Source of the DNA: Promethearchaeota archaeon
GTDB lineage: Archaea; Asgardarchaeota; Lokiarchaeia; Sigyniarchaeales; SOKP01
Reading direction: 5' to 3'
Length of the DNA: 64,000 nucleotides
NCBI GenBank assembly: GCA_029838195.1
Contig: JALGVJ010000015.1
Coordinates: forward strand, 1-64,000
This document shows positions 19,773 through 39,408 of this stretch, one piece after another; positions within the stretch are counted from its first letter, which is position 1; each line of letters opens with the position of its first letter. The position numbers and the translations under genes are program-made. A model generated the notes under the pieces. It did no database searches and was not told where the DNA came from. It saw only the letters and a list, made by a program, of their open reading frames with translations.

Positions 19773-19816
19773 ATGATGAGGACAATATTAAAACGACAAC
19801 TCCGACAGTTTTCTGA
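19773..19816 (-). promoter_or_regulatory. Promoter of arCOG07300-polB2 with conserved operator-like motif
   Basis: Minus strand TCAGAAAACTGTCGG-N8-TTTTAATA...TCATCAT; near-identical architecture at 22234-22280. Confidence 0.65.
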
Positions 19817-19887
19817 TTTCTTGATATATACCTCGGTAACGAGAGGAAAAATAAATTTTTAATAAAATCAATCAATATTGTAATACC

Positions 19888-20859
19888 ATGACCTATAAAA
19901 TATTTGATTCCTTGAGTTATGTGCCCACGGAAGAAGTCTTGGTGGATCTCATTTTATCGTTACCTCCTCAAATGGCACCTTACATTAAAAACGTGTTCGG
20001 GCCCCGTGTAGCCCCCCTTTTTGGATTGGATGCGGAAGAACTATATCACATGAAAATGACACTGGGAAAGGAAGAATTAAAATCAGCTATTCAACCATTC
20101 TTGCCAAAAATAAAACAATTTGCCATACCGGTTGAAAAATTCATAAAGCAACTGGACCGGATGGGTGTGGAAAAAGCTGTGTTATTTAATTTAGATGAGG
20201 AGACTCCCAGCGGGATCAGGGGTCTTCCAAATGATTATTATGCTGAAATCGTAAATGAATATCCTGAAACATTTATCGGAATGGCTGGTATTGACCCGTT
20301 AAAAGGAATGAATGCCGTAAGAGAAATACAACGAGCACATGATTTAGGATTAAGGGGCGTTGCAATTCGTCCATTCATGTTCCAGATCCCTCCGCATCAT
20401 GCCAAGATGTATCCAATTTATGCAAAATGCGTGGAGTTAGATATTCCCATTTGGTTGCACCTTTCTATTAATTTTTCAACACAAACAATGGAAGTAGAGC
20501 GTCCAATTTACCTTGATATTGTTGCTCAAGATTTTCCTGAATTAAAAATAATCGCCGGTCATGGAGGGTGGCCATGGGTCAATGAAATGATGGCTGTAGT
20601 ATGGCGTAATCCAAATATTTATCTTGACATCGCCTCCTACCTTCCTAAATACCTTGCAATGAAAGGATCAGGATGGGAAAATCTCCTTACCTTTGGTGAT
20701 TCATTATTACAAGATCGCGTCTTGTTCGGTTCTACCTGGCTTTTCATGGGGCAAACCATTAAACAATTAGCAGATGGTGTCATGGAATTGCCTTTAAAAG
20801 AATCCACGAAAAGAAAATGGCTTCACGATAATGGAGCAAAATTATTTGGAATTAAATAA
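19888..20859 (+). CDS. Amidohydrolase_2 family metal-dependent hydrolase
   Basis: PIWLH, IIAGHGGWPW, NIYLDIA, DRVLFGSTW. Confidence 0.88.
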   Translation: MTYKIFDSLSYVPTEEVLVDLILSLPPQMAPYIKNVFGPRVAPLFGLDAEELYHMKMTLGKEELKSAIQPFLPKIKQFAIPVEKFIKQLDRMGVEKAVLFNLDEETPSGIRGLPNDYYAEIVNEYPETFIGMAGIDPLKGMNAVREIQRAHDLGLRGVAIRPFMFQIPPHHAKMYPIYAKCVELDIPIWLHLSINFSTQTMEVERPIYLDIVAQDFPELKIIAGHGGWPWVNEMMAVVWRNPNIYLDIASYLPKYLAMKGSGWENLLTFGDSLLQDRVLFGSTWLFMGQTIKQLADGVMELPLKESTKRKWLHDNGAKLFGIK

Positions 20860-21036
20860 AAATATAGAATATGGGTCCAATTAAAAATTATTCTGAGGAT
20901 TTAGGTACTCTTTCAACATTTACCTCGGATTAAAGGAAAATCCATTAATTTTTTTATTTCAATCAAAAAAAATATCAACATTCACGAGTTATTTAAATCA
21001 GTAAAACGGTATAAAAAAAAATTCGAGTGACATGTA

Positions 21037-21459
21037 ATGTCTAATTATTTAAAAGATCATGCTCCTTGTGGAATTTATTGTAAGAAATGTCCTGGAGTAA
21101 AATTTTATAACTGCAAGGGTTGTAGAGAACAAGAGGGACGGATTCGGGACTTTCCCACGTGTAAAACATATGAATGCGTTACTACTAAAGGGTATAAATT
21201 TTGTTTCGAATGTGAAGAATTTCCTTGCGAAAAGCTTCAACCCATTGTCAATTTTGAGATTTTCACGCCTCACAATTCTAAAGTATATAATTTAGTAATG
21301 ATAAAAAAGCTGGGATTATCTAAATGGAATGAAATCTGCGAAGAAAAAACGGAACTTTATTATAAAGGAAGAAAAGTCAGGTATGGAGGAGACGGATTAA
21401 CATTGGAAAAAAAAGATCCGAACATGTATAAAAAAAAGCAACTCGAAAACCATAAATGA
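21037..21459 (+). CDS. Cys-rich DUF3795-like protein
   Basis: APCGIYCKKCP, CKGCR, FCFECEEFPCEKL. Confidence 0.8.
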   Translation: MSNYLKDHAPCGIYCKKCPGVKFYNCKGCREQEGRIRDFPTCKTYECVTTKGYKFCFECEEFPCEKLQPIVNFEIFTPHNSKVYNLVMIKKLGLSKWNEICEEKTELYYKGRKVRYGGDGLTLEKKDPNMYKKKQLENHK

Positions 21460-21472
21460 ATTTCCCAATCGC

Positions 21473-22264
21473 TCAGAACCAACAATCCAACGTCGTATTT
21501 TTCAAGGGATTTGACAATTTTCTTTTTGATTTCCTTGGTTTCCATTTCAAATACCGCTTTTTGGGCATGAAGGGATGTTGCACGAGCGTGTATTCCACGT
21601 AGCGTTCGCATTCCTTAATCAAGACTAACACGTTTCCAAAATGAGCCAAGTATTTTCCCCCTTTTGGCCGATAAAGAGAATGTTCATGTAAAGGAGCGGT
21701 TAACACGATGAGTGGTTTGGCCTTTTCAAGCATTTTCTTAATTCCTCCAATGGCTCGCAACAAATCTTCAAATATCCGTTTTTCGTGGACTTGAAATAGA
21801 GAAGTAATGCCAGAAATGAGAACGACTTTTATTTCTTCAAGTTTTGCCAAGCGGTGCTCCAAGAGCTCAACCATTTGATCCCACGTAAAGGCACGAGCAA
21901 TGATGATGTTTTCCAGCACTTTCTGAGGAGAGAGCTTCTGCGAAACGGCGAATCTACTCACCGTGTAAGGATTAAAGCGATTATTGGCTTCCACGAATGC
22001 CACTCTCGTGTTCTCTCCAATGCCACCATTCACGGGAGCTTTTTGCGCAATTACCGCCGTGGTCAATAAAATATTCGTGGTTATCGTCTTGTCGCCATAC
22101 AATAAATGGACAAGATCCCGATGAAATCCACCCGAAAGCAAGACATCAAGTGCCTTATCTCCACTGGAAAGAAGAGGCCTACGAGAAAACTTATCATGCA
22201 CGAATACTCCCGAATGAAATGACATCACAAGAGATGATGATCTGCCCGTATAAAAGTGGGACAC
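21473..22264 (-). CDS. Inactivated RadA/RecA-fold protein (iRadA) of the PolB2 module; start probably ATG at 22225
   Basis: SGDKALDVLLSGG, degenerate Walker A (LLYGDKTITTN), NRFNPY, IIARAFTWDQ; C-terminal PIP-like KNTTLDCWF. Confidence 0.85.
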   Translation of the reverse strand: MSHFYTGRSSSLVMSFHSGVFVHDKFSRRPLLSSGDKALDVLLSGGFHRDLVHLLYGDKTITTNILLTTAVIAQKAPVNGGIGENTRVAFVEANNRFNPYTVSRFAVSQKLSPQKVLENIIIARAFTWDQMVELLEHRLAKLEEIKVVLISGITSLFQVHEKRIFEDLLRAIGGIKKMLEKAKPLIVLTAPLHEHSLYRPKGGKYLAHFGNVLVLIKECERYVEYTLVQHPFMPKKRYLKWKPRKSKRKLSNPLKNTTLDCWF

Positions 22265-22280
22265 GCCGACAATTTTCTGA
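22234..22280 (-). promoter_or_regulatory. Promoter of iRadA with conserved operator-like motif
   Basis: Minus strand TCAGAAAATTGTCGG-N10-TTTTATAC...TCATCAT; TATA lies 23-30 bp before ATG 22225. Confidence 0.65.
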
Positions 22281-22689
22281 GATCACGATCCTTTTTAAGC
22301 ACTATCATATCCTCATTTCTTTTAAGTTGATCCCCATTTCATTTAAATGAAAGGTCGTACCGGACGGAGAGAGAGAGGAAAATAAAAGTAAACTTGATTT
22401 GCGATTTTTCTGTTAATGCCATGAGGGGTCCGACGAAACCTTGAGATTTCTCAAATCGTTGTTAAGTCAGGTAAGATGGATGAGAGAATTAATTAAGTAG
22501 AGAACGATTTTACAATTATTTATTAATTTTTTAGATTAATCTATTAAGAAGTTATTATAATAATTGAATTTCCTGTTGAGCATTCAGTTTTTCGTAATGT
22601 ACATTTAAGTCAAAAATAATGTAAGGATAAATTTTATAAAGAACAGAAATAATTTAATACTTACAATTAGAATAAAAAAAGGTGAAATC

Positions 22690-23085
22690 TTGATCTTACA
22701 ACTTATCAATCCTGGTTGGTTGGCTACATTTATTACTCTCTATGGAATTGCATTTTTCATCCTAAGCATTATCATCTCATCGATAATTTTAGCCATCGTA
22801 TTAAAAATTACTTTCGCTTTCGTGAAAGCAGAACACGAGAATTTTGGTGCCGTCTACGTTACAGCTCTCATTGCCGTAATTATCATACAATTATTGTTTT
22901 TAATAATATATTTCTGGATTGCATTGGTTTTAGCTTTAATCCTATTCTGGTTGATTATCGCAAAACGCCACGAAATTAGCTATGGAAAGGCCATTTTGGT
23001 TTCAATTCTGGCATTAATCGTTTACATCATATTGATCTTCATCTTAGCTATTGTTCTTGCCCTTATATTAGTATTTCTAATATAA
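22690..23085 (+). CDS. Small four-TM membrane protein
   Basis: Very hydrophobic; shares LKI...FGAVxVTALI...RH with the next gene; AGGTGA SD. Confidence 0.75.
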   Translation: MILQLINPGWLATFITLYGIAFFILSIIISSIILAIVLKITFAFVKAEHENFGAVYVTALIAVIIIQLLFLIIYFWIALVLALILFWLIIAKRHEISYGKAILVSILALIVYIILIFILAIVLALILVFLI

Positions 23086-23458
23086 AACGTTGGATCTTAT
23101 CTTTTTAATTATTATAACTCTTCTTTTTTTCCATTTTTCTACGTGTATTTTTTAAGATTAATGGCATGGGAAAATAGGGTACCATTAAAATTTAGAATTT
23201 TTTAATGGAAAAAATTAATTCTTAATAACTAAAGGATATCTGATCAAAGCATGAAAATCTTTAATATTGGAACGTGAATTACGAATATCATTTTACCCTT
23301 GCATTTTGTCAAATGAAAGTGTTTTAAGATTCGTAGGTAGCATTGTTCAATAATGAATTCTAAAACTATCAATAGATTTTTATACTCAGATTTCTTAATA
23401 AAAAAACAAGCAATAATAAAATCAATTACTAAATTTACAAAATAAGGTCGAAATCAAG

Positions 23459-23809
23459 ATGGGAGCAATCCCGGGAGAATGGATTCTCGCATTAGGAATC
23501 GTGGGCATCATCGTTTTGATCATTATCATTATCTTGATTGGCATTGTTATAAACACCATCTTTTTAAAAATTGGTTTAGCATTATTTGAATCTACCAACA
23601 ATGAATTTGGAGCTGTATTTGTTACTGCTTTAATTATGGCATTAATAGGGTGGATTCCGTGTATCGGGTGGATTCTCTGTTGGGTAGTTATTAATTCACG
23701 TCATGACACAGGATTCTGGCAAGCGATAGTCATTTGGCTAATCTCAAGTTTAATTTCCTTTATTGTGGGATATTTCGTGGGCATGTTTATCTTACCATTA
23801 ATAATTTAG
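23459..23809 (+). CDS. Small membrane protein, paralog of 22690-23085
   Basis: FLKIGL...EFGAVFVTALI...SRHD. Confidence 0.8.
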   Translation: MGAIPGEWILALGIVGIIVLIIIIILIGIVINTIFLKIGLALFESTNNEFGAVFVTALIMALIGWIPCIGWILCWVVINSRHDTGFWQAIVIWLISSLISFIVGYFVGMFILPLII

Positions 23810-23873
23810 GTTTTTTATATGAAGTTTTCTCTTATTTATTTTTTTTTCTTTTCTCTTTTTTCATCTAAAAAGT

Positions 23874-24311
23874 TCATAGTTTTAGAATTTTAACGTTGAA
23901 AAGTTGTTCATCATCTAATTTTAGGAATTTTAATGCTATTTTCCCTATTTCTTCTTGAGTAGCGTTTTTAGGAATGTTTATTGGAGCTTTCAATTCTATG
24001 ATTAATTTTGTATTTTTTAAGGTAAAGATTGCTTTTGAAATGCCCTCATTAACAATCTCGATATTGTTTTTACCGAGGGTACAACTTGAGAAAAATTGAA
24101 TACCATCAACGGGGCAAGATTTCGGAGGAGAATACCCGGTATATACTTTTACATACTTTTTAAACGGATAATCACCTAAACACTTGTTAGATAGAATTGC
24201 TATGCGTGCGCCCATAATAATATAGGGACCTAAATGCCCATGAAATTCTCTCAAATACTCAAGGCGTTTTACAATATCATTTATTGAGATTCTTTCTTTA
24301 ATTTCTTTCAT
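23874..24311 (-). CDS. fmdE: FmdE family protein
   Basis: EFHGHLGP...G.R; SCPVDGIQFFSSCTLGKNN. Confidence 0.85.
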   Translation of the reverse strand: MKEIKERISINDIVKRLEYLREFHGHLGPYIIMGARIAILSNKCLGDYPFKKYVKVYTGYSPPKSCPVDGIQFFSSCTLGKNNIEIVNEGISKAIFTLKNTKLIIELKAPINIPKNATQEEIGKIALKFLKLDDEQLFNVKILKL

Positions 24312-24364
24312 TTTTGATGGATTATTTCATGATCATGAATTTTTTGTTTAAGAATACTAATCTT

Positions 24365-24985
24365 TTATTTTTCTTTTTTTCTAAATTGGGTTTTAAATAA
24401 ATAGGGCAGATTATTTTTTTTACAATAAGTTCTCATTTCTTGAAAGCCTGGACACGTATCCCAATCTAAATCATGGATACAGTTTTTACACGTTTTATAT
24501 GCACTAGCTGCATGATATAAATTAATAAGTGTTAATAGAATGCCAAAGATAAAGATAAAATTAATCAAATTATAATAAAATGGTAAAGGAGCCTTAAAAA
24601 TCCACCAAAATAAGAAGGCGCCCCCTAAATTAAAGAGGATTTTTTGAAGAACTTTAATTTTTTTCAAGTTTGTTAGTTTTAAAGGACTTAAAAAAAAAGA
24701 AGCCATTAATACAATCCCCATGAATAATAAGAAGTCATGAGCAAGAATTTCCAAGATAAAATATATAAAAATAACTCCTAAAAGAGCAGAAGGATATCCG
24801 ATAATACAGCCGATGCAAAAGTGTTTATTTCTTATCGTTATAACGTGTTTTTTAAAAGGGGCACAATTAGGATGATGACTTAAGTATAAAGGTTTTAAAC
24901 TCTTGATCCATGAAAAGAGGGAGTAGTTTTTCCCATCATCGTAATGTTCCGGAAAAAAGTTTTCATTTCGGTTTTTATCCTTCAA
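24365..24985 (-). CDS. Membrane protein with His/Cys metal-binding motifs (DUF2085-like)
   Basis: SHHPNC, FCIGC, about 4 TM segments, CKNC...CPG. Confidence 0.65.
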   Translation of the reverse strand: MKDKNRNENFFPEHYDDGKNYSLFSWIKSLKPLYLSHHPNCAPFKKHVITIRNKHFCIGCIIGYPSALLGVIFIYFILEILAHDFLLFMGIVLMASFFLSPLKLTNLKKIKVLQKILFNLGGAFLFWWIFKAPLPFYYNLINFIFIFGILLTLINLYHAASAYKTCKNCIHDLDWDTCPGFQEMRTYCKKNNLPYLFKTQFRKKEK

Positions 24986-25088
24986 ATTACTAATAAATCA
25001 ATGATTAATTTATACTCTTAATGGAAATCTTTTCTTTTAAATTAATATCTTCTTTTTTTGAAATATAGAAAGGAAAACCCTATTATGA

Positions 25089-25862
25089 TCATTTATTTAA
25101 ACAATCTTTAACTCTCTCTATGATTTGAGGCAAGACATTGCCGATTTTATCATGAATTACTACTTCTGCTTGATGATCCATTTCGGTCGGTTGAATATTA
25201 ATTATAGCTAATTTTGCTCCAGCAGCAATCGCTTTATGAGGATAAAAAGCCACGGGATACACTAAAAGAGAACTTCCAAGAACAATCATTAAATCTAAAT
25301 CAGCAATCATCTCATCCGCTTTTCTTAAAACAGCAGACTCTAAAGGTTCACCGAAAAATATAGCATTGGGTTTCAATAATCCTCCACATTCCTCACAAGT
25401 CGGGGAATTTTTACCCCTTAATACTTGGTTGATCAAGGTAGTAATGGGATAAACTCTCTTGCATCGCAAACATTTACTTTCATTCGCCGTCCCATGTAAT
25501 TCGACCACGTTTTTTGTCCTCGCTTTAGAATGCAATCCATCGATGTTTTGAGTAAGAACCCCCTTCAATTTTCCCATTTTTTGGAGTTGAGTTAAAGCTT
25601 TATGTCCCTTGTTCGGTTTTGCCCGAAAGATCGTAGTGCCCATTTCTAACATCAATTTTAAATTCTTAGAGGTGGAAGATACATACGAATGTATGCTTGC
25701 GAATTCGTCGGGATCTACTTTTGTCCATAATCCTGTTCCAGGTGAGCGAAAATCCGGAATTCCTGATTCCGTACTCATTCCAGCACCTGTTAAAGCTACA
25801 ATATTTTTTGATACCAAGATTAAATCTGCGAATTTAGCAATTAATTGTTCTCTTTCTGTCAT
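25089..25862 (-). CDS. NAD-dependent protein deacylase (sirtuin)
   Basis: TGAGMSTESGIPDFR, TQNIDGLH, ELHG, CxxC...CxxC, GSSLLVYP. Confidence 0.95.
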   Translation of the reverse strand: MTEREQLIAKFADLILVSKNIVALTGAGMSTESGIPDFRSPGTGLWTKVDPDEFASIHSYVSSTSKNLKLMLEMGTTIFRAKPNKGHKALTQLQKMGKLKGVLTQNIDGLHSKARTKNVVELHGTANESKCLRCKRVYPITTLINQVLRGKNSPTCEECGGLLKPNAIFFGEPLESAVLRKADEMIADLDLMIVLGSSLLVYPVAFYPHKAIAAGAKLAIINIQPTEMDHQAEVVIHDKIGNVLPQIIERVKDCLNK

Positions 25863-26107
25863 AATGTTTTGTTGATATTTGTATTAAAAATAAAATTCTA
25901 ACTGATAAAAAATATTTAAATTCTACTTATTCGTATGAATTATATTTTATATAGTTTCCATGCTTAAAAATGTTAAATTTCTTTTAATGGCTCATGAGAG
26001 GATTCATGAGACTTGATGTTCGTGTTTGATTTAATTAAAAGTAGTTCTTTTAAACCTCATGAATTGGAAAGGGGAACCCATGAAAAGATTGGGATCTCTT
26101 GAACCAA

Positions 26108-27631
26108 CTACCAATAATAAGGTTTTTTAGGATAATAAAGAGGTGTATTTAGGAGCCACTCAAAAAGAGCTTCTTTTAATTCATTTTCGATTGCAGAAAC
26201 TTCTTTTTGTCCGATTAGGTTATCATATTCTAAAGAGTCTTGTTCTGAATTAGTCAATACGAATCCATTTCCTCGTTTGGGAAGGGAGAGAATTTGATAA
26301 TTATCTTTGGTATTTTCTTGTAATTTTTCTTTCGGAACGAACCAGTTATTCAAGGGGTAATAGATAAGTTTCCAAGGCCCTTTACTCACACCAACTGCTT
26401 TCTTTTGGTATTCATAATAGGAGTAAACCCGAGATTTTTTTAATGGTTTATTTTTCAAGAATGGTGCAAAAGAAATCCCTTGAACGTGGTCTGGTATGGG
26501 AAATCCTAAGTAATCAAGAATGGTAGGAAGAATATCTTCATGCTGAGTTGCTCCGTGATATTCTGTTCCCGCTTTCATTTTTTTGGGGAGTCTTATCAAG
26601 AAAGGGATTTTAAGAATATTATCATACATGAAACATAACTTTCGGACGAGTCCATGATCTCCACAATAATCTCCATGGTCGCTTGTAAAGATAATTATAG
26701 TATTTTCAAGTTGATCTGTCTCTTCTAGAACGTTCAATATCCGACCAATGTGATGGTCGATATGGGAGATCATTCCATAATATGCAGCCTTCATGCGTTG
26801 AAATTCCGAATCAGGCATATCTTTTACGTGAAAATAACAAGGGGGAAGGAAGGCATTTTCACCCTTTTTTCGAATTGGTCTTGGGAGTTCTTTTGGATCG
26901 TACATAGAAGCAAAAGGCTCGGGAGGATTAAAGGGATGATGAGGGTCGACATAGGAGCACCAAGCAAAGAATGGTTTATTTTGAGCCGTCTTTTCTCGAA
27001 TGAATTTAATTGTTTGGTCAGTAATCCATGCAGTTTGATGAAGGTGTTCAGGGAGTTCCGAAGTAAAGACTGCTTTCAAAGTTCCAACATCTGCAAAGAG
27101 AGGATCGTAATAATTGTCTATGTAGGGATTACTTGTTTGTTCGTTGCCATTTTTCAAGGCAGCTTCATAATATTGTGGAAATTCTTCCTTAATGTATTCA
27201 AGATATTCCCCTACCAAATTATCTTCAGTAATGGCAAATTCATTAAACCCATAATATTTTTTATCATGATTCATATTTTCAGCATAATTGCTTAGCTCCG
27301 CTTCGAAATGCGCTTTTCCAAAGATTCCAGAAATATAGTTTTGTTTTGATAAAAGGTTTGGAATTCCAATGATTTTTTTATCTAAGTTATAACCAACATG
27401 CCAAGCGCCGTGAGTTCTAGAATATAGTCCGGTTAGGATGGAAGCACGTGCTGGGGTACATATAGGAGATGAACAGGTGTGATTTTTAAAATTAATGCCC
27501 TCTCTTGCGATTCTATCTAAATTGGGAGTGCGGATGTAATCATTACCATTACATCCGATAGCATCAAATCTTTGTTCATCCGTAGTAATTAATAAAATGT
27601 TCAATTTTTGTTGTTTTTTGTTATTATTCAT
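26108..27631 (-). CDS. Formylglycine-dependent sulfatase
   Basis: NILLITTDEQR, CTPARASILTG (CxPxR), GKAH, DPHHP, SDHG. Confidence 0.92.
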   Translation of the reverse strand: MNNNKKQQKLNILLITTDEQRFDAIGCNGNDYIRTPNLDRIAREGINFKNHTCSSPICTPARASILTGLYSRTHGAWHVGYNLDKKIIGIPNLLSKQNYISGIFGKAHFEAELSNYAENMNHDKKYYGFNEFAITEDNLVGEYLEYIKEEFPQYYEAALKNGNEQTSNPYIDNYYDPLFADVGTLKAVFTSELPEHLHQTAWITDQTIKFIREKTAQNKPFFAWCSYVDPHHPFNPPEPFASMYDPKELPRPIRKKGENAFLPPCYFHVKDMPDSEFQRMKAAYYGMISHIDHHIGRILNVLEETDQLENTIIIFTSDHGDYCGDHGLVRKLCFMYDNILKIPFLIRLPKKMKAGTEYHGATQHEDILPTILDYLGFPIPDHVQGISFAPFLKNKPLKKSRVYSYYEYQKKAVGVSKGPWKLIYYPLNNWFVPKEKLQENTKDNYQILSLPKRGNGFVLTNSEQDSLEYDNLIGQKEVSAIENELKEALFEWLLNTPLYYPKKPYYW

Positions 27632-27709
27632 ATATTATCATTAAGATTTTTAATTTCATATTCGATTAAGCAATATTTAATGGTTTTTCTTCCATCATTG
27701 CTTTACAGA

Positions 27710-27955
27710 AGCGGAAAAATCTGGAATTCATAACATCGTCCACATTCCATCACCGGTTAAAGCTACATTATTATTTGATTTAATAATTAATTCTGCGAAT
27801 TTGGTAATCAATTGATCCGCTTCTGTTATATTTCTTATTCTTGCTTGCATTTTAAAAATAAAATCTTAAATGAGAATAATTATTTAAACTCTATTTAATT
27901 GTATGAATTATATTTTATATATTTCCTATGCTTAAAAATGTTAAATTTCTTTTAA
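27710..27955. repeat. Diverged direct duplicate of the sirtuin 5' end and upstream region (~25745-25987)
   Basis: Shared GTTAAAGCTACA and CTGCGAATTT, plus a near-identical 55-bp GTATGAATTATATTTTATATA...ATGCTTAAAAATGTTAAATTTCTTTTAA. Confidence 0.9.
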
Positions 27956-28257
27956 CTTGCCATAAATTGATTCATTTGGAATATTGTTCCCTTTAGAGAG
28001 CAAAACCATGATAACCCGCAATAATTAGAAATTAAGAAGGATCGTGTAAGTAATTCTATGGGTTAATCCATTAAAATATATTTGATATTTTAGAACATCT
28101 CTCTTCATGGTTCTAAAAGAGTTTTTAATTTGGATAATTATATATTCAATAAATTTTATATAATGAATAACTTATAATTATCAGCTATCTTAATTAAACA
28201 AGATTTTATAAAAGAATATATAAAGCACCATCATGGATTTTAATGAGGCCTTGTTAA

Positions 28258-28815
28258 ATGTCTGAATCGAAAGTACAAAAAAGTTTTATTTATAAAATCT
28301 GCGTTCTGGGCGACGGTGGAGTCGGAAAGACGTCAATGGTACTCAGATATTGCGAAAATAAATTTAAAGAAAACTATATCATGACCATTGGAAGCAATTT
28401 TGCAAGTAAAAAAGTAGTTCTCGAAGATTATCCTGAATTCAATGTAAACTTGCAGCTTTGGGATCTGGCCGGCCAACAGCATTTTTCGTTTGTCCGCCCG
28501 CCATTTTATCGTGGCGCCTCTGGATTAATATACGTGTTTGATCTAACTAGGAGGAGTTCTTTTACAAATCTTGCGAAATGGAAAGAAGAAGCCATGAAAG
28601 TATTAGGATCTCAGAAGCCAAACATATTAATTGGAAATAAATTAGATTTAGTGAGAGACGGAAATAGAGAAATCGGAGAAAAGGAGGGGGAAGCATTAGC
28701 TAAGGAATTTAATGCATTAGCTTATTATGAGACCAGCGCAAAAGAGAATATTAATGTCGAACTTGTATTTAAAAATTTGACTTTAGGAATTCTAAAAGCC
28801 TCAAATAAAATATAA
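28258..28815 (+). CDS. Rab-like small GTPase (Asgard eukaryotic signature protein)
   Basis: GDGGVGKT, TIG, WDLAGQ, NKLD, ETSAK; RabF-like IGSNF/NLQLW/FYRGA/YVFDLT; no C-terminal Cys. Confidence 0.93.
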   Translation: MSESKVQKSFIYKICVLGDGGVGKTSMVLRYCENKFKENYIMTIGSNFASKKVVLEDYPEFNVNLQLWDLAGQQHFSFVRPPFYRGASGLIYVFDLTRRSSFTNLAKWKEEAMKVLGSQKPNILIGNKLDLVRDGNREIGEKEGEALAKEFNALAYYETSAKENINVELVFKNLTLGILKASNKI

Positions 28816-29171
28816 TCTTTCGCTTTCTTCTCTTTATCAATTTATTTGATTTTTCCTAAGCATCATGATTTTTTATTATTTTAGTTTTTTTAGTATTTCG
28901 ACTTTTTATTTTCAAAAAAAAACATTATTTTTTTATGAGAACAGAGAAATCAAAATTATTAATCCCATTCGGATAAATTAAAGACAAGAGAGAATAATAA
29001 CGGTTAAAATATTAAAAGAGTTTAAACGTAAGTAAAATGAACTTAGCCCTATTAAGAATCGATTCGAAAAAATTAGAACTAATAAATCATTTAAAAAAAA
29101 TTTTTATTACAATAACAATTTTTACCCTTTAATTAAAAGAATTAAATGATAAAAACTAAAATAGGTTATAA

Positions 29172-30594: not shown

Positions 30595-30766
30595 TGGGAA
30601 TTTAAATTTTGATTTTTTTCGAATCCAGATCAAGAGAATTTATTTTAAAAGAATGAACCAATGAGTAATTAAATATTGACTGAATAAAAAAATAAAAACA
30701 ATCAACAGAAAATATTAAAACCAAATTAGTTAAGCAATAAGGTAAAAATTTGGGAGAAGGGGAAAA

Positions 30767-33700
30767 ATGACCGAAGATAAAAAAGATAAGATTTTCACGG
30801 AAGCTTATAGTTTATTAGAACATGCTTTAGATTTGTTAGATTCTAAATTTTATGATGATGCGTTAGAAGTTTTGAAACAATCCAAAGAGCTTTTTAAAGA
30901 ACTAAATCGAGAAGAAGAAATGAAAATAATTGAGGAGAAGATTTCAGAGATCTCGAAAATAAAAGAACGTCAGAGGACTGATCTTGTAACGAAAAAGAGA
31001 GAAGATTCAGAATTGGAAACTCAAATAAGAGCATTAGTGGATGATGCAGAGCGTCTTGCTCGCGAATATGAAAAAGAATGGCATGATGCCCTAAAAGAGG
31101 ATAGAATCCTTAGGGAAAGTAAATATCCATTGGTCATTCAAAAATACAAAAATATTATAAAGCTGTTAAAAGATAAAGGTTGGGAAAAACAAATTCCTGT
31201 TTATGAAGAAACGATTGAGAGATACAAATTAAAATTGAAAAACGAGGAAAAAGTTAGAGATTTGGAAAAAGAAAAAAGAGAAAAACAGGAAAAACAACTG
31301 GGTCTTCGGAGATTGCCTTTAAGGGACGTATTAAAAATAGTAGATGGTGAATCTAAAGATGAGATTTTAAATGAATTAAGAAAGAAGGGAGAGGAAAAAA
31401 ATCTTGATATCTTAATTGAAAGTATTGAACGTGAATTGAAATTCAGGGAAAAAGAATATTTGAAAGAACTTAAAGAAGGAAATTTTAATATTGAATGTCC
31501 ATATGAAAAAATAATAATCGTATATCAAGCTATTCAACAACTATTAGAAGAAAAAAATCATCCAGAAGAAGCCTCATTATATACTAATATTATCAAAAGT
31601 TATGAACAAAAACTTGCTCAAGATGAAAATCTAAGGGCAACAGAAGCTTTAAAATTGAAAAAAAAAGAAGAGTTTGAAACGCTCCAAAAATCAAAAGATG
31701 TTTCTCCAGCAATGCAACAGCCTGAGAAAATAAAAAGAACAATGGAAAAAGAAACACTAGAAAAAGATGAAAGTCAAGATATTGATGCTTATATCGATAC
31801 CCTTATAAAAAAATCTAATGAATTAGAAGAAATTTACATGAAGACTATTAAACAAGGGAATTTTGAGATTGAGTGTCCCTATGAAGAGATTATTAAGAAT
31901 TATAAAGAAATTCAAGATCTTTTAAGAAAAAATAATCGAATGAGAGAAGCTTCGCTTTATGAAAATGCCATTCAATTATACCAACAAAAATTGGAACAAG
32001 ATAAAAGATTAAGAGAAACTGAGGCTCAAAAAAAACAAAAAAGAGAAGAATTGAAAGCTTTACAAAAAATAGAAAATGGAGCTAAGGAGAGTGAGATAGA
32101 TAAACGCATGATTTTAAAAACGACTAAGAAAGAAGAAAATGAGCAGTTTCAACAGGCGATGCGGTTAATAGAAGAAGTTGAAAAAGAGATAAAAGAATAT
32201 GAAACTCAACGTAAGGAAAACATTCTTGAACATGAAACCCCCTACGAACGAGCCATTGAAGCTTATAAAACTGCTCAAAATATTTTAAGAAAAATTGGAT
32301 GGACGGATGAAGCTAATCGATTAAATGATTCTATTATTTATTATAAAGAAAAAAAGGAAAAAGACGATATTTTAAGAGCCAGGGAATTAGAAAAAAGAAA
32401 AAGAAGGGAAATTGTACTGGAAAGAGAAAAAGAAACAAGAAAAACGTTAAAAATTGAATCTGAAAAAGAAGTAATGGAAAAAGAAAGGCGGATTAAACAA
32501 CAGCAAGAACAAAAAGCTGCCGAGTTAAAGCGAGCTAATGAACTTTTTGAAACTATAGAAAAAGCAAACCAAATAGCAAGAGAATATCAAGTTCAAATAA
32601 AACAAAAAAATTTTACAGAGCCATCAAAATATATTGAGGTGATTGATATCTATGAAAAAGCAAAAGAAACGTTTGAAAATATGGGTTGGGAAGGAGAGGC
32701 TAACAAATTAAATGCTTCTATTTATTATTACAAGAAAAAATTAGAGGAAGAAAATATTCTGAAAAAGCAGTTTCAACAAGAAAAAAAAGAAAAAGAGTTA
32801 GTGGAGAAAGGTTATCAGTTAATGGATCAAGCTTTAAAAAAATTGAGTGTTCAAGAATTCGATGAGGCACGAAATTTATACAATAAAGCTAAAGGAATCT
32901 TTTTGAGTTTGGGAAGAAGTCTTGAATTAGATAAGATTAAAATGGCCATGATTGAATTAAATAGAAAGAGGGAGGAATATCTTAAAAAATTAAGAGAACA
33001 GGAGGAAAAACGAGAAAAATTAAGAGAAGAAGAAAAAATCCTGGAAGAAAAAGCCATTATTGAGCGCAAGAATTTTCAAAGAGAGTTAGAAAAAAAGCAA
33101 GAGCTATTCATACAACTTAAAGAAAAAGAACAAAAAGATAAAGCAATTTCCGAGGAAGCCTTATCACTTATTCATCAAGCAGAAGAAATGGCAAGAATAT
33201 ATGAAGAGAATATAAAGTTAGGGAGACGTCCCGAACCCGTATATGAAAAGGTAATAGAATTTTATGAAAAAGCCATTGAAAAATTTCGAATGATTGGATG
33301 GGAAGATGAGATTTTAAAATTAAAAGAATCCATCCAATATTATCGAAAGAAGAGTAAAGAGGATAAAGAATTAAGGGAGTTAGAGCGAGTAAAATCAAGA
33401 GAAATAGAAATAGAACAAGAGGCTTATAATTATTTGGAAGAAGCTACAACCATGATGAATTCTAATAATTTCGATGCTGCTCTAGAATTATATAAAAAAG
33501 CAAGAGATTTGTTTGAGGAAATTAATCATGATTTAGAAGTTAAAAAAGTAAATAATTCCATTTTAGAACTCAAACGTAAAAAAGAAGATTATTATAAAAA
33601 ATTAGAAGAAATAAAGAAGAAAAGAGAAAAACTCATAAAAGAGCAACAAGAATTAGAACAAAAGATACTTCTTGAAAGAAAAAAATTAAAAAAAGAATTA

Positions 33701-36700
33701 GAAGAAAAGCAACAACAATACCTTCAAATTAAAGAAAGAGAAGAAAAGGAGAAAAAGATTTCGGAGGAGGCATTGTCTCTTATTAATAAAGCAGAAGAGA
33801 TTGCAAAATGTTATGAAGAGGAATTAAAAAAAGGAAAACTTCCTCCGGAATGTGGTTATGAAGAAGCTATTAAATTATATCAAAACGCGCTTGCTAAATT
33901 AAAATCACTTGATTGGAAAGAAGAAATCAAACGATTAGAAGAATCGATTGAATATTATGAGGAAAGATTAAAAAGAGATAAGGAAATACGTGAAATAGAG
34001 GCAATTAAAAGAAAAGAAGCAGAAATTCAGAAAAAAGCATATCTTTATTTGGATCAAGCGGCAAACATGATGAATATTAAGAATTTTGACGATGCATTGA
34101 AATTTTATGGACAAGCTAAAGATTTATTTGAACAAATAGGAAGTTCTTTTGAAATCGAAAAAGTGAATCAATCCATCATGGAATTAAAAGAAATTAAGGA
34201 AGCTCATGAAAAAGAATTACTTGAACAAAAATTAAAAATTCAAGAGAAAGAAAAAGAATTAAAGAAACTAGAAGAAGAAGCTAGGCTTCAAAAGTTAAAA
34301 ATCCAAAAAGAATTAGAAAGAAAACAACAAGAAGTCATGAAGGCTTTGGAAGAAGATAGAACACGTCAAGCTATTTATGAACAAACCTTAACCATGATCC
34401 AAGAAGCTGAAGATAAAGCACGAGAATATGAAGAAAAGATACAAAATGGAGAACTAGTGGATTGTGTCTATGGAGAAGTGATTGAATTATATAAAGAAGC
34501 GATTAAAAATTTTGAAAAAATTGGTCTCAGGGAAGAAATAGAAAGGCTAAAAGAAGCTATCGAATTTTATGAGGAAAAAGAAGAACAAGATACAAGATTA
34601 AGGGAATTCGCTAAAATTTCGGAAAGAGAAAAAGATCTAACGATAAAAGCTTATCAATTAATGGATATGGCTGCTAGTTCATTAAAAATGAAAGAGTTTG
34701 ATAAAGCTATTAAATATTATGAAGAAGCAAGAAAAATTTTTGATGAACTTAGCCATGAAGATGAGATATTGAAGATCTCCATTTCGATTGATGAAGTAAA
34801 TAAGGAACGAGAAAAATATCTTGAAGAATTGGAGAAAATAAAAAAATCCAAAGAACAAGAAGAGGAACAGTGGCGCTTGTTAGAAGAGGAAGCTAAAGCC
34901 TTAAAAGCCCAAATTCAAGAAGAATTGAAAAAGAAAAATGAACAACTATTTGAAATTCAAAAACAAGAGAGAGAAAAAAAGGAAATTTCAAACCGTGCTC
35001 TCTCATTGATAACAGAAGCAGAAACTATGGTTGAAACTTATGAGAAACTCATGAAAAAAGGAGAACGACCAGAGTGCGTGTATCCGCAAGTGATTGAGAA
35101 TTATCAAAAAGCCATGGAGCTTTTTACATCCATTGATTGGGTGGATGAAGCGGAGAAATTAAAGGATCCCATTGCTCACTATGAAGAAAAACTAAGAAAA
35201 GATCAAAAAATAAGGGAAATGGAACTCAACTTGAAAAAAAAGGCAGAAATAGCTGAGAAAGCTTATAAATTAATGGATCATGCCATAACCGCTGTTAACA
35301 TGAAAGAGTTTGATGAAGCATTGGAATTGTATCAAGAAGCTAAAAACCTTTTTACTTCAATTAATAGAAATTTAGAAGTTGCTAAAATAGATATTTCAAT
35401 TGAAGAGGTGAAGAAAGAAAAAGAACAATACTTGCTCAAGTTAGAAAATCTTAAAAGGAAAAAGAAAGAAGAACAAGAACTTTTAGCCCAACTGGAAGCG
35501 AAGGCGAGAGGCCAGAGACTCCAATTTCAAAAGGAAATGGCAAAAAAGAATCAACAGCTAAAGCAATTATCTAAAATTGAAAAAGAGAAGAAAGTAATCT
35601 CCGAAAACGCATTATCCATGATAATTGAGGCAGAAGAAAAAGCAGAAAATTATGAAAAAGCCCTAAAAGAAGGTAAAAAACTTGCTTGTGTTTATCCGGA
35701 AGTAATTAAACTGCTTGAAAATTCAAAAAAACTGTTGGAAAGCATTGAATGGACGGAAGAAGTTTCGAGAATTCAAGAATCCATTCAATATTATAAGAAC
35801 AAATTAGAGCAAGATAAAAAATTAAGAGAACTAGAAGAGGCAAAAAAGTTAGAAAAAGAATTAACAAATAAAGGCTATGAATTAATGGAAAAAGCCATTA
35901 TCCAAGTAAACATGAAGAATTTCGATGAAGCCATTGAATTATATAAAGAAGCATTAGCGCTTTTTGAAAAAATAAATCGCGAAATAGAAATCGAAAAGAT
36001 CACCATATCATTAATGGAACTTGAACAAAAAAAGAAAGAAGAAGCACTAAGACTAGAGAAGGAACGAAAAAAAAAGGAGGCACAATTATTAGAATTTCAA
36101 GAAATGGAAGCACGTGCAAAAGCAGAAAGGAAAAGATTACAAGAACAGTTAAAAAAGAAACAAGAACAATTTCTTGCAGTTAAAAAGAGAGAAAAAGAAG
36201 AAAAAGAGAAAGCTGAAAATGCACTTTTCATAATTAATCAAGCAGAATCATTGGTAGAATCCTATGAAAAAGCTTTAAGTAATGGACAACGGCCAGAATC
36301 AATTTATCCTAAAGTCATAGAATTATATGAAAGCGCACTTCAATTATTAGAAGAGATTGAATGGAAAGAAGAAATTGATAAGATTAAGGAAGCAATTGAC
36401 TATTATAAGGAAAAATTAGATGAGGATTTAAAATTTAGAGAATTAGAGGCGAAAAAGTTAGAGGAAGAAAAAATAGCTTCTGAAGCATACCTTTTAATGG
36501 AGAAAGCAATTTCCTTGGTTAATATTCAAGAATATAGTAAGGCGTTAGATTTATATGAAGAAGCAAGAAAAAAATTCCAAATCATTAATAGACCTATAGA
36601 AATAGAGAAAATAGACGCATCAATAGAAGAATTACATAGAATTGAAGAAGAAAAAATTGAAAAATTAAAAAGAAAGCGAATGGAAGAGATTAAAAGAAGA

Positions 36701-39034
36701 AGGGAAAAGGAAGAATTTGAAAAGGAACTCTTGGCAGCAAGGAAGAAGTTAAAAAAAGAAATGGAAGAGAAAAAGAAAAAACAATTAGAAAAGCAAGAAC
36801 GAATCAAGAGAGAAAAGCAAATCTCAGAAGAAGCTTTTTCATTAGTTAATAAAGCAGAAAATATGGTAGAAGAATATCATTTAAAATTAAGTAAGGGCGA
36901 AAGTCCTGAAATTGATTATAATAAAGTCATCGAATTATATGAACAAGCTATAAAAAAATTAAAAAGCATAAATTGGCAAGATGAAGTAAATAAGCTTTTG
37001 GATGCTATTGAATATTATAAACAGAAAAAGAAAGATGAAGAAATTCTAAAAAAATTAGAATTAGAAGAGAACAGAAAGGAAAAAGAACTTGAGAAAGCAT
37101 ATACATTAATGGAAAAAGGCATGGAATTGTTTAAACAATCAAAATATGAAGAAGTTATTCGACTTTATGAGCAAGTTGCTCAAATCTACAAGCAATTAGA
37201 AATGGAATATGAATTGATGACTATTGAGAATTTAATCTTAGAAATTAATGAGAAAAAGGCTGCTGAAGAAAGAGCTCTAAAAGAGGAGGAAAAATATCGG
37301 GAGGAGATTGAGAGAGAATTATTAGAGCGACAAAGAGAATTAACTAGAGAATATAGCGAGGAGCAGAAGCGAAAACAAAGAGAAAAGGAGCTGTTAAAAG
37401 CTGAAAAATTGAAAAAACAAAAAGAAAAAGCAAAAGCTAAGGAAGCTCATGAGTATATAGACAAGGCAGAGGAATTAGCTAAAAATTACAAATTAGATAT
37501 AAATGTAGCATTTGAAAAAGTAGAACAATTATTCAACAAAATCTTCGATTATTATCAAAAAGCTAAAAATATTTTTGAAGAAATTAATTGGAGAGAGGAA
37601 GTTAAAACATTAGAAGAGACGATTGAATATTATCAAGAAAAGCTGAGAGCAGACAAGGAATTTCGAGAGATTGAAACACAAAGAAAAAAGCAAGAACAAG
37701 AAGAATTAGAACGCTTGGAACAATTGGCTCGCATGGCTAAAGAGCGAGAAGAGTTGATGAAAAAAAGGAAAGAAAAATTGTTATTAAAAGCTAAAAAAAT
37801 AGCAAAAGCCCATGAGGAAAAGAAAAAGAAAGCTTTTGAGTACTTGGATGCAGCAAATGAAGAATTAAATAATAATAATCACGATAAAGCACGTGAATTA
37901 TACCAATTGGCTGGCGAAATATTTGCTAGCATTGATTGGCAAGAAGGCGTTTCAATGATTAACGAATCCCTTGAAATGGTTGAACAACGTAAAAGAGAAG
38001 TCGAAAAGCAACTTAAAGAAGAAGAACAAAGAAAACATGAACAAGAATTATTTCATAGAGAAATAGAAGAAAAAATAGCTGAACTTGAAAGGATTAAGCA
38101 ACAAGAATTAGAACAGAAGCGAAAAGAACTTCTAGAGAAGCAAAAACAGCAAAAAGAACAAAGAGAAATTGCGGATAAAGCTTTTAAGTTGTTAGAAGAG
38201 GGCACGCGATTTTTGGAAGTCAATAAATTTGACGACGCAGAAGCGAGATATATACAAGCACGAGACCTTTTTGGCAAAATTGGATGGACCCATGAAATTT
38301 CTAAAATAAATAATGAATCCTTATTGAATTTAAGAAGAAAGAAAGCCTTAATCGCACGTTCAAGAGAAGAACAAAGAAAAGCTAAAGAATTGAGAGAACG
38401 GAGAGAAAAAGAAATAGAAAAACAAAAGCAAATTCAAGAAAAAGCCCTTAAAAAATTACGAAAGATAAAAATCATGGATAAATTTGACGAATCCATCCAA
38501 CAAGAGTATGAAAAAGCTCAAGAATACCTCAACTCTCATGAATATAACCAAGCCGTCCTTATCCTTAAAGATGTCGTGGATAAATTAGAGAAAGCAGGAA
38601 AACAAGATGAGAAAGAAAAAATTAAATCCCAAATAATGCAAATCATGGAACAATCAAGAATCCCCATCATTACATTAGAAGAAACAATTTCTCCAAAAGA
38701 ATTAGACTATTTCATTGCAACTTGGCGAGCCCTCGATAAAGCAAACATTTCTCTTGCCAATAATTTGCCCATGAAAACGATTTCTGAATTAAAAGAAGCC
38801 ATCTTTAACATGCAACAAACTCAGCTGTCTAAAAAGTATCTTGAAAAAATTAATTCCCTAATGAACGAATTAAATATTGAATTGGGAAGAAAAAGAAAAG
38901 TACCACTCAGTGATGCGGGTGATAAATCCGAAACGGAGATTCAAAAAGATGAATTAGAACAAAAGATCCAAGAACGAAGAAAACAACGTGAACAACGCAT
39001 TTTAGACTTATTAAAAAAAAAGAAAATTGAATAA
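30767..39034 (+). CDS. Giant (2755 aa) all-alpha E/K-rich repeat protein with TPR/MIT-like modules and charged helical linkers
   Basis: Uninterrupted 8.27-kb ORF; about 13 type-A and 13 type-B helical modules; no TM segment or signal peptide. Confidence 0.9.
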   Translation: MTEDKKDKIFTEAYSLLEHALDLLDSKFYDDALEVLKQSKELFKELNREEEMKIIEEKISEISKIKERQRTDLVTKKREDSELETQIRALVDDAERLAREYEKEWHDALKEDRILRESKYPLVIQKYKNIIKLLKDKGWEKQIPVYEETIERYKLKLKNEEKVRDLEKEKREKQEKQLGLRRLPLRDVLKIVDGESKDEILNELRKKGEEKNLDILIESIERELKFREKEYLKELKEGNFNIECPYEKIIIVYQAIQQLLEEKNHPEEASLYTNIIKSYEQKLAQDENLRATEALKLKKKEEFETLQKSKDVSPAMQQPEKIKRTMEKETLEKDESQDIDAYIDTLIKKSNELEEIYMKTIKQGNFEIECPYEEIIKNYKEIQDLLRKNNRMREASLYENAIQLYQQKLEQDKRLRETEAQKKQKREELKALQKIENGAKESEIDKRMILKTTKKEENEQFQQAMRLIEEVEKEIKEYETQRKENILEHETPYERAIEAYKTAQNILRKIGWTDEANRLNDSIIYYKEKKEKDDILRARELEKRKRREIVLEREKETRKTLKIESEKEVMEKERRIKQQQEQKAAELKRANELFETIEKANQIAREYQVQIKQKNFTEPSKYIEVIDIYEKAKETFENMGWEGEANKLNASIYYYKKKLEEENILKKQFQQEKKEKELVEKGYQLMDQALKKLSVQEFDEARNLYNKAKGIFLSLGRSLELDKIKMAMIELNRKREEYLKKLREQEEKREKLREEEKILEEKAIIERKNFQRELEKKQELFIQLKEKEQKDKAISEEALSLIHQAEEMARIYEENIKLGRRPEPVYEKVIEFYEKAIEKFRMIGWEDEILKLKESIQYYRKKSKEDKELRELERVKSREIEIEQEAYNYLEEATTMMNSNNFDAALELYKKARDLFEEINHDLEVKKVNNSILELKRKKEDYYKKLEEIKKKREKLIKEQQELEQKILLERKKLKKELEEKQQQYLQIKEREEKEKKISEEALSLINKAEEIAKCYEEELKKGKLPPECGYEEAIKLYQNALAKLKSLDWKEEIKRLEESIEYYEERLKRDKEIREIEAIKRKEAEIQKKAYLYLDQAANMMNIKNFDDALKFYGQAKDLFEQIGSSFEIEKVNQSIMELKEIKEAHEKELLEQKLKIQEKEKELKKLEEEARLQKLKIQKELERKQQEVMKALEEDRTRQAIYEQTLTMIQEAEDKAREYEEKIQNGELVDCVYGEVIELYKEAIKNFEKIGLREEIERLKEAIEFYEEKEEQDTRLREFAKISEREKDLTIKAYQLMDMAASSLKMKEFDKAIKYYEEARKIFDELSHEDEILKISISIDEVNKEREKYLEELEKIKKSKEQEEEQWRLLEEEAKALKAQIQEELKKKNEQLFEIQKQEREKKEISNRALSLITEAETMVETYEKLMKKGERPECVYPQVIENYQKAMELFTSIDWVDEAEKLKDPIAHYEEKLRKDQKIREMELNLKKKAEIAEKAYKLMDHAITAVNMKEFDEALELYQEAKNLFTSINRNLEVAKIDISIEEVKKEKEQYLLKLENLKRKKKEEQELLAQLEAKARGQRLQFQKEMAKKNQQLKQLSKIEKEKKVISENALSMIIEAEEKAENYEKALKEGKKLACVYPEVIKLLENSKKLLESIEWTEEVSRIQESIQYYKNKLEQDKKLRELEEAKKLEKELTNKGYELMEKAIIQVNMKNFDEAIELYKEALALFEKINREIEIEKITISLMELEQKKKEEALRLEKERKKKEAQLLEFQEMEARAKAERKRLQEQLKKKQEQFLAVKKREKEEKEKAENALFIINQAESLVESYEKALSNGQRPESIYPKVIELYESALQLLEEIEWKEEIDKIKEAIDYYKEKLDEDLKFRELEAKKLEEEKIASEAYLLMEKAISLVNIQEYSKALDLYEEARKKFQIINRPIEIEKIDASIEELHRIEEEKIEKLKRKRMEEIKRRREKEEFEKELLAARKKLKKEMEEKKKKQLEKQERIKREKQISEEAFSLVNKAENMVEEYHLKLSKGESPEIDYNKVIELYEQAIKKLKSINWQDEVNKLLDAIEYYKQKKKDEEILKKLELEENRKEKELEKAYTLMEKGMELFKQSKYEEVIRLYEQVAQIYKQLEMEYELMTIENLILEINEKKAAEERALKEEEKYREEIERELLERQRELTREYSEEQKRKQREKELLKAEKLKKQKEKAKAKEAHEYIDKAEELAKNYKLDINVAFEKVEQLFNKIFDYYQKAKNIFEEINWREEVKTLEETIEYYQEKLRADKEFREIETQRKKQEQEELERLEQLARMAKEREELMKKRKEKLLLKAKKIAKAHEEKKKKAFEYLDAANEELNNNNHDKARELYQLAGEIFASIDWQEGVSMINESLEMVEQRKREVEKQLKEEEQRKHEQELFHREIEEKIAELERIKQQELEQKRKELLEKQKQQKEQREIADKAFKLLEEGTRFLEVNKFDDAEARYIQARDLFGKIGWTHEISKINNESLLNLRRKKALIARSREEQRKAKELRERREKEIEKQKQIQEKALKKLRKIKIMDKFDESIQQEYEKAQEYLNSHEYNQAVLILKDVVDKLEKAGKQDEKEKIKSQIMQIMEQSRIPIITLEETISPKELDYFIATWRALDKANISLANNLPMKTISELKEAIFNMQQTQLSKKYLEKINSLMNELNIELGRKRKVPLSDAGDKSETEIQKDELEQKIQERRKQREQRILDLLKKKKIE
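32530..37430 (+). repeat. About 8 diverged tandem 204-aa (612-bp) repeats within the giant ORF
   Basis: Equivalent codons at 33146, 33758, 34373, 34985, 35597, 36209, 36821 (spacing 612/615/612/612/612/612). Confidence 0.9.
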
Positions 39035-39061
39035 AAAAATAAATTTTAAATAAATTAGAAT

Positions 39062-39292
39062 TTAAACTGCTATTTTTTCAGAAATTGGCAACTTTAATTC
39101 TTCATTTTCCCTTTCCACTTCTGTTGCTCCATTATTTCCATTGATTACCTCATCAATTTTGAATTCTGTCTTGATCAAGTCTCGAATCGCCATTCGAATT
39201 GCCTCGCTTCGATTTGGAAATCTCCCTTCAGCAACTAATATTTCTAATAAATTTAAATAATTTTCTGGAATGTTTAATGAAATTAATCTCAT
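39062..39292 (-). CDS. cdrS: Ribbon-helix-helix regulator, CdrS-like
   Basis: MRLISLNIP...GRFPNRSEAIRMAIRDL resembles the archaeal CdrS pattern GxFPNRSEAIR; GGGAGGT SD. Confidence 0.7.
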   Translation of the reverse strand: MRLISLNIPENYLNLLEILVAEGRFPNRSEAIRMAIRDLIKTEFKIDEVINGNNGATEVERENEELKLPISEKIAV

Positions 39293-39345
39293 TTTTTACC
39301 TCCCTCTTTTTTTTTTTTGATATCACGTGTTGATTAAGATCATAT

Positions 39346-39360
39346 ATATCATAGTGATAT
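39346..39360. promoter_or_regulatory. Palindrome ATATCA-TAG-TGATAT, candidate RHH autoregulatory site
   Basis: Perfect 6-bp arms overlapping and downstream of the minus-strand TTTAAATA TATA box of the RHH gene. Confidence 0.4.
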
Positions 39361-39392
39361 TTAAATATTTTAGAGAAATCAACCCCAACAAA

Positions 39393-39408
39393 TCCGACAT
39401 TATTCGGA
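39393..39408. promoter_or_regulatory. Third copy of the CCGACA-N3-TTCKGA motif
   Basis: TCCGACATTATTCGGA (TCCGA-N6-TCGGA pseudo-palindrome), same orientation to the gene as the two PolB2-module copies. Confidence 0.5.

Follow-up and report, generated by a model that had tools for sequence, protein, structure and literature searches.

The closest described counterparts of the system considered here come from Haloarchaea and Sulfolobales. CdrS of the former and aCcr1 of the latter are small ribbon-helix-helix (RHH) regulators, each acting in a circuit with a small target set, and their known boxes are palindromic, of the type A(T/G)G(A)TA(G)A(T/G)TACN. In Sulfolobales, Orc1-2 governs the response to DNA damage through a damage-response element (DDRE), 5'-ANTTTC-3', found on the coding strand of damage-induced genes, 23–55 nt 5' of their ATG (PMC6061795). 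PolB2, PPB2 and iRadA, which make up the module described in PMC11791011, are all damage-induced in that group. For Asgard archaea, a full-text literature search on promoter motifs and regulons returned no described case of gene regulation. We analysed a 64,000-nt stretch of Promethearchaeota archaeon DNA (contig JALGVJ010000015.1, positions 1 to 64,000, hereafter the window, from whose first letter positions are counted), which encodes the PolB2 module and a CdrS/aCcr1-like RHH regulator, RHH-1, on its minus strand. An initial annotation had linked three promoters of these genes by one shared 15-mer, and proposed that they belong to an SOS-like regulon.

Inspection of these promoters and of their orthologues revealed two conserved elements adjoining core promoters, rather than one. 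Element E1 (consensus TYAGAAAAY) is common to the iRadA and PPB2-polB2 promoters. Element E2 (WTTTTGTCGG, that is TTTTGTCGG, with the core TTGTCGG) is found upstream of a small conserved set of genes, among them iRadA and RHH-1. The three strings of the initial annotation are present verbatim at 19802-19816, 22266-22280 and 39394-39408, each on the minus strand and upstream of a minus-strand gene. The single 15-mer is a composite of E1 and E2, since iRadA and polB2 share TYAGAAAAY throughout the family, while iRadA and RHH-1 share TTGTCGG. Part of that claim stood: the two repair promoters do have a real upstream element, under selection, in common.

The genome of the window (G000; the window is its contig 28) has 4.52 Mb, 33% G+C and an estimated completeness of 96.6%. 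The combined pattern, TCMGAANNNTGTCGG, occurs four times in it, three of them inside the window, but it was fitted to these three sites, and conservation in relatives is the independent test. The comparison set comprised 101 genomes of the same family (Promethearchaeota/Promethearchaeia metagenome-assembled genomes), distributed over 13 genera; the sister family f2 contains Promethearchaeum syntrophicum MK-D1. Sites were kept in orthologous promoters while their flanks diverged, and the same element recurred at several genes. The test is one that can fail: two E2-like sites used as negative controls, one at the gene TFB-A and the TGTCGG of the polB2 promoter, were not kept in relatives.

The first of the repair promoters is that of iRadA (21473..22228, minus strand; Pfam Rad51, a Rad51-like protein), homologues of which were detected in 87 of the 101 family genomes. 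Translation starts at GTG 22228 or ATG 22225, and not at the GTG 22264 given by the open reading frame (ORF) finder (ORF 21473-22264), which lies inside the promoter motif; the resulting N-terminus, MSFHSG, can be aligned with MMTFDSG in relatives. Upstream of the gene, T[CT]AGAAAA[CT]TGTCGG is almost invariant, and is followed after about 10 nt by a TTTTATTTT box and, 27–30 nt further on, by the start codon; TYAGAAAAYTGTCGG is likewise nearly invariant there. Within this block, E1 (TCAGAAAAT, 22272..22280, minus strand) was exact in 28/30 orthologous promoters. The TGTCGG of the proximal E2 (TTGTCGG, 22266..22272, minus strand) occurred in all relatives (29/29) and ranks first in conservation among the hexamers of the upstream region. 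Its core TTGTCG was kept in all 13 genera, and also in genus g17 of family f2, including MK-D1. The TATA box is TTTTATAC (22248..22255, minus strand), and the start codon lies about 27–30 nt downstream of it in all relatives, so that the iRadA mRNA is probably leaderless.

A second E2, in the window the variant TTTCGTCGG (22430..22438, minus strand), lies some 165 nt 5' of the proximal one. T[TC]GTCG was found at this fixed position in 32 of 58 family loci, with a TATA-like ATAAAAAG 1–3 nt later. Over 638 kb of sequence around iRadA, 62 of the 67 non-coding TTGTCGG matches corresponded to these two iRadA sites.

The second repair promoter drives PPB2 (arCOG07300-like, 93 aa, 19456-19737, minus strand; no Pfam family; homologues in 87/101 family genomes) and PolB2 (17045-19459, minus strand; Pfam DNA_pol_B), which form an operon (17045..19737). 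Here the only part conserved among orthologous promoters was TYAGAAAAT, 12–20 nt 5' of TTTTAAT; in the window these are E1 (TCAGAAAAC, 19808..19816) and the TATA box (TTTTAATA, 19786..19793), both on the minus strand. E1 was exact in 22/30 of these promoters and present with at most one mismatch in 28/30. Against the counts of exact sites at iRadA and PPB2-polB2, five control promoter sets had E1 in 1/146 cases, which marks it as an element under selection that only the PolB2 module has. In both promoter classes it always lay 12–20 nt upstream of the TATA box.

In contrast to E1, the TGTCGG at the polB2 promoter (19802..19807, minus strand) is confined to this genome: the sister genome has CCAGAAAACTTCTTCAGTGTATC in its place, and none of 28 other relatives has the hexamer. 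A second copy, TTGTCG at 19794..19799 (minus strand), directly abuts the TATA box, the same layout as at the conserved sites of other genes, and is not kept in relatives either. The polB2-promoter E2 probably reflects a recent homogenisation with the iRadA promoter. Other traits of the initial annotation were similarly present and private to this genome: the second degenerate halves TGTCGT, TGTCCC and TGTTGG, and the downstream TCATCAT at 19773-19779 and 22234-22240. The gaps from motif to TATA box were as given, 8 nt to TTTTAATA and 10 nt to TTTTATAC.

The third site belongs to RHH-1 (39062..39292, minus strand), which passes the cut-off of Pfam RHH_1. Its best NCBIfam matches, CdrS at 44.9 bits and aCcr1 at 22.5 bits, both fall short of their cut-offs (100 and 60, respectively). 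The gene is syntenic with iRadA, at a distance of 12–17 kb, in many genomes. Its E2 core TGTCGG (39394-39399) and the conserved block ATTTGTTGGGGTTGATTTC together occupy 39375..39399 (minus strand). TGTCGG was exact before 24 of 30 orthologues, with GTCG invariant, and it persisted in genus g9 despite an insertion of about 25 nt after the site. The TCCGAA half of site 3 was not kept in orthologous promoters, and in the deepest genera the iRadA site reduces to AAAAWTTGTCG; what iRadA and RHH-1 have in common is therefore TTGTCGG, and not the 15-mer. Of the proposed three-promoter link, the part that joins iRadA to the CdrS-like gene held, and the polB2 part did not. TGTCGG was also kept in the RHH-1 promoter of two genomes (G073 and G092, loci L081 and L064) that yielded neither PPB2 nor iRadA, which argues that the factor recognizing E2 would not be dedicated to the PolB2 module.

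E2 was found at further genes of G000. This genome has four CdrS-like RHH paralogues, two of which carry E2 in their promoter. At the second one, RHH-2 (contig 90), CCGACAA adjoins the TATA box, that is, E2 is in reverse orientation; this was the case in 22/29 orthologues, and the site yields the same 11-mer, TTTTGTCGGAT. When the remaining non-repeat, non-coding TTGTCGG matches were followed, E2 proved to be present also upstream of a histone gene, in 20/28 orthologous promoters, and upstream of the origin-adjacent orc1/cdc6 in 20/28, where the TATA box is followed after 1–3 nt by CCGACAAT. The best-conserved low-probability hexamer was the same word for iRadA, RHH-1, histone and orc1; it ranked near the top for RHH-2, and was unconserved for PPB2. 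E2 thus occurs in both orientations, usually 0–10 nt from the TATA box and overall at 0–28 nt. Its place at orc1 and RHH-2, immediately 3' of the TATA box, is of the kind used by repressors. The TFB-A gene was rejected as a target, its site being found in G000 only.

Conservation extends beyond the family. In family f2, MK-D1 included, the orc1 promoter shows a TATA box, 6 nt and then CGACAAAAA; RHH paralogues have E2 as CCGACAAAA or TTGTCGACAA, and f2 histone genes have it too. No E2 was found at orc1 in families f4–f6. RHH-homologue promoters of families f4 and f6 (loci L251-L256) have repeated GTAATAC/GTATTAC boxes in place of E2, similar to the Sulfolobales aCcr1 box.

These data are best accounted for, with somewhat better than even confidence, by two elements of distinct function: E1 would be specific to the PolB2 module, and E2 would be the putative operator of a second sequence-specific DNA-binding factor, with a small conserved target set in Promethearchaeales. 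We infer from the footprints that each element is bound by a sequence-specific protein. E1, which spans roughly −52 to −44 relative to the inferred start site and is private to the iRadA and PPB2-polB2 promoters, would most likely be bound by a module-specific factor. The PolB2 module would then have two separately regulated promoters with a common private element that gives it an input of its own, for which a damage signal is plausible given the damage induction of this module in Sulfolobales. The predicted E2 targets are iRadA (two sites), the two CdrS/aCcr1-like RHH genes, histone and the origin-adjacent orc1/cdc6. The common regulator that had been postulated is supported, and the E2 core links iRadA to the CdrS-like gene more deeply than was proposed.

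As two E2 targets are themselves CdrS/aCcr1-like regulators, an RHH protein is the most economical candidate for the E2 factor. Such a protein would act by auto- and cross-regulation, with iRadA, orc1 and histone as additional targets; we hold this tentatively, as an assignment with a real but minority chance of being right. The full scheme, in which a CdrS/aCcr1-like autoregulator co-controls orc1, histone and iRadA through E2, while E1 conveys a second, possibly damage-responsive input to the PolB2 module, is less likely than not, and should be taken as more doubtful than its parts. The circuit would be coupled to replication or to the cell cycle. If so, it would be the first cell-cycle or replication transcription circuit defined in Asgard archaea. 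Its conservation in the cultured MK-D1 makes it directly testable, and it offers a limited number of concrete probes and candidate proteins with which to ask how replication, chromatin and damage tolerance are coupled in the closest prokaryotic relatives of eukaryotes.

The likeness to aCcr1 and CdrS lies in small RHH regulators being part of the circuit and in the small target set; in addition, E2 immediately after the TATA box at orc1 and RHH-2 falls in the position class of the aCcr1 box. The differences are in sequence and in targets. E2 (TTTTGTCGG) is asymmetric, GTA..TAC-type boxes were absent from E2 promoters (GTAATAC being seen only in the f4/f6 RHH promoters), and in this genome E2 was not found before ESCRT-III or ftsZ genes, nor was cdvA a target; the targets are orc1, histone and iRadA.

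Several observations limit the two-element explanation or its RHH candidate. E2 is mostly single-copy as well as asymmetric, whereas the CdrS and aCcr1 boxes are palindromic and of different sequence. The RHH-1 promoter itself has a palindrome that would suit autoregulation better than E2: ATATCAC-N-GATAT directly follows the TATA box (39358-39370; box and palindrome together 39345..39370, minus strand). This palindrome (39345-39359) was kept family-wide as ATATCAC-N(1-5)-GTGATAT (RHH-1 promoters L061-L090), and block TTYTGTCGGATTTCTTGGGGTCAATTTCCAC, TATA box and palindrome were all conserved upstream of RHH-1 orthologues; it is a possible auto-operator distinct from E2. The GTAATAC boxes of the f4–f6 RHH promoters were not seen at orc1 or iRadA, and the histone orthologue was not found in these families. 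Because E2 differs from promoter to promoter in its orientation and in its distance from the TATA box, the sites do not point to one mode of action, be it activation or repression. Non-coding TTGTCGG was not enriched in G000 (36 unique matches, rank 48 of 140 composition-matched permutations), so that any regulon must be small. Finally, the compared genomes are related and not independent, and the conservation counts overstate the statistical support.

The regulon first proposed, in which one damage-responsive regulator would recognize the composite motif and switch on translesion synthesis together with a division regulator, is unlikely. In its favour are the damage induction of PolB2, PPB2 and iRadA in Sulfolobales (PMC11791011), the restriction of E1 to exactly the promoters of this module, and the presence of both E1 and E2 at both repair promoters of this genome. 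The reverse complement of E1, ATTTTCT, also fits the Orc1-2 element ANTTTC (PMC6061795). This fit is weak, as it concerns a 6-mer with one free position, in opposite orientation, and fails at site 1 (GTTTTC). E1 lies about 75–85 nt (site 1) or 50–55 nt (site 2) from the start codon. The likeness to the Orc1-2 system is that the PolB2 module has a dedicated element near BRE (TFB recognition element) and TATA box, with orc1/cdc6 in the network; the differences are the reversed match in another sequence context and the two Orc1/Cdc6 genes of G000, among which no dedicated Orc1-2-like paralogue was evident.

The breadth expected of an SOS-like response was lacking. In G000, the 300 nt preceding each of five RadA-family genes, two ftsZ genes, two ESCRT-III (Snf7) genes and the second Orc1/Cdc6 gene contained neither E1 nor E2, and there was no global enrichment. 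Outside iRadA the exact motif was at background frequency: the 13-mer AGAAAAYTGTCGG gave 89 matches in the 101 genomes, 65 of which lay directly 5' of iRadA, and the number of others came close to that of the reversed-pattern control (about 20). Among 20 non-iRadA matches that were retrieved in search of a wider regulon, most were coding (thermosome genes, for instance), few were intergenic and no target recurred. As to global enrichment, the window itself was at background, and counts of TGTCGG in upstream windows are inflated by ATG-TCG-G start codons. The conserved partners of iRadA under E2, namely orc1/cdc6, histone and two RHH regulators, are not repair genes, and suggest wiring of replication or the cell cycle more than an SOS response.

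Candidate regulators of the SOS type were not found either. With the LexA/SOS system this locus shares a translesion polymerase module that has a conserved putative operator near its promoter. It differs from it in having no palindromic SOS box, in that recA/radA is not a member, and in membership generally; the LexA DNA-binding domain (PF01726) had no match in G000, which is 96.6% complete, and did match in control genomes. In mycobacteria, the PafBC consensus RecA-NDp begins tTGTCRgtg and keeps a constant distance to the core promoter downstream of it. TTGTCGGTG, present at many iRadA promoters, is similar, but the resemblance is best treated as coincidence: PafBC is a bacterial helix-turn-helix-WYL activator of sigma-factor promoters. 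The WYL domain (PF13280) had no match in G000 and was detected in seven control genomes, which leaves the PafBC-like mechanism that had been suggested without a candidate protein.

A further alternative, which we regard as improbable, is that E2 is bound by a protein of the Orc1/Cdc6 type, or by a nucleoid or origin factor, acting at the origin by orc1 and at a few promoters. In two families E2 is indeed conserved 5' of the origin-adjacent orc1, within AT-rich DNA that is likely the replication origin. Analogy also speaks for it, since Orc1-2 is the damage-response regulator of Sulfolobales (PMC6061795), polB2 neighbourhoods are enriched in orc1/cdc6 (PMC11791011), and UBP of Sulfolobales binds an 11-bp ucm motif both at origins and at some 300 other sites (PMC12141716). 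However, the ORB-like (origin recognition box) sequences by orc1, TTTCGAGTGGAAA, differ from E2, and the only second Orc1/Cdc6 of G000 adjoins an integrase and lacks E2. The scarcity of non-coding E2 sites disfavours an abundant nucleoid protein.

We consider it very unlikely that E2 is a BRE-like part of the core promoter, variant in sequence and recognized by an alternative TFB paralogue rather than by a classical transcription factor. Four promoter classes, read in the orientation of E2, have a TATA-like box 0–3 nt after TTGTCGG, family genomes contain several TFB paralogues, and TFB2 drives a cell-cycle wave in Sulfolobus. Yet the gap to the TATA box is 10 nt at the proximal iRadA site and 28 nt at RHH-1, the orientation of E2 at orc1 and RHH-2 would direct transcription away from the gene, and the element of the MK-D1 orc1 promoter is downstream of the TATA box. 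Occurrence in both orientations, at 0–28 nt from the TATA box and downstream of it at orc1 and RHH-2, fits a transcription factor better than a BRE.

The view that there is no shared regulation, the repair promoters being duplicated DNA and the third site a chance hexamer, draws on the extended identity of sites 1 and 2 (15-mer and TCATCAT), which is limited to this genome and looks like a recent conversion, and on the fact that a window with roughly 55 promoters will not rarely have one TGTCGG among them by chance. Its probability is very slight, because the maintenance of E1 and E2 across 13 genera and two families while flanks diverge, and the rank of the same word as top-conserved hexamer in several unrelated promoters, largely refute it.

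Some further features deserve mention in their own right. Upstream of the origin-adjacent orc1 (G000:C69:65042-65386; loci L334-L363), E2 is surrounded by a long, conserved stretch of AT-rich sequence, and the ORB-like boxes are close to the start codon. The second Orc1/Cdc6 gene (G000:C86:78860-80059) is directly downstream of a tyrosine-recombinase-like C-terminus, and for that reason may belong to an integrated element.

Between the two iRadA sites lies a pyrimidine-rich block, TTTTTACTTYTACTMT-CCYCYCTCYRTCYCCATGRAAC...CTTTTAAARGA (22362..22392, minus strand), conserved in 55/58 loci (L172-L234) about 130–175 nt upstream of iRadA. The distal E2 is 37 nt before it, and its beginning roughly coincides with the start expected for a transcript from the distal E2-TATA unit. 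The block had no Rfam match, no consensus fold and no conserved small ORF, and a scan of the iRadA upstream region for bacterial-type promoters and terminators gave nothing above shuffles.

Three dispersed repeat families, of 11, 9 and 4 copies, contribute 24 of the 54 non-coding TTGTCGG of the genome; the copies are found mostly at contig ends (examples are C25:288, C30:52, C31:51, C43:19, C58:18, C62:18 and C39:24030) and are probably the ends of mobile elements. Other non-coding E2 matches of G000 adjoin, by annotation only, small proteins, a tetratricopeptide repeat protein and metabolic genes. The window also encodes a TFB (TFIIB) paralogue (59922-60776, minus strand); family genomes hold one to five of these, most of them two to four. 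Finally, the intergenic sequence GAATAATGTCGGAATTCTGTCGTGTTAAAATA (G000:C50:14664-14695) has a layout like that of site 1, with two TGTCG copies followed by a TATA box, about 100 nt upstream of a gene for a 162-aa protein with no Pfam family.

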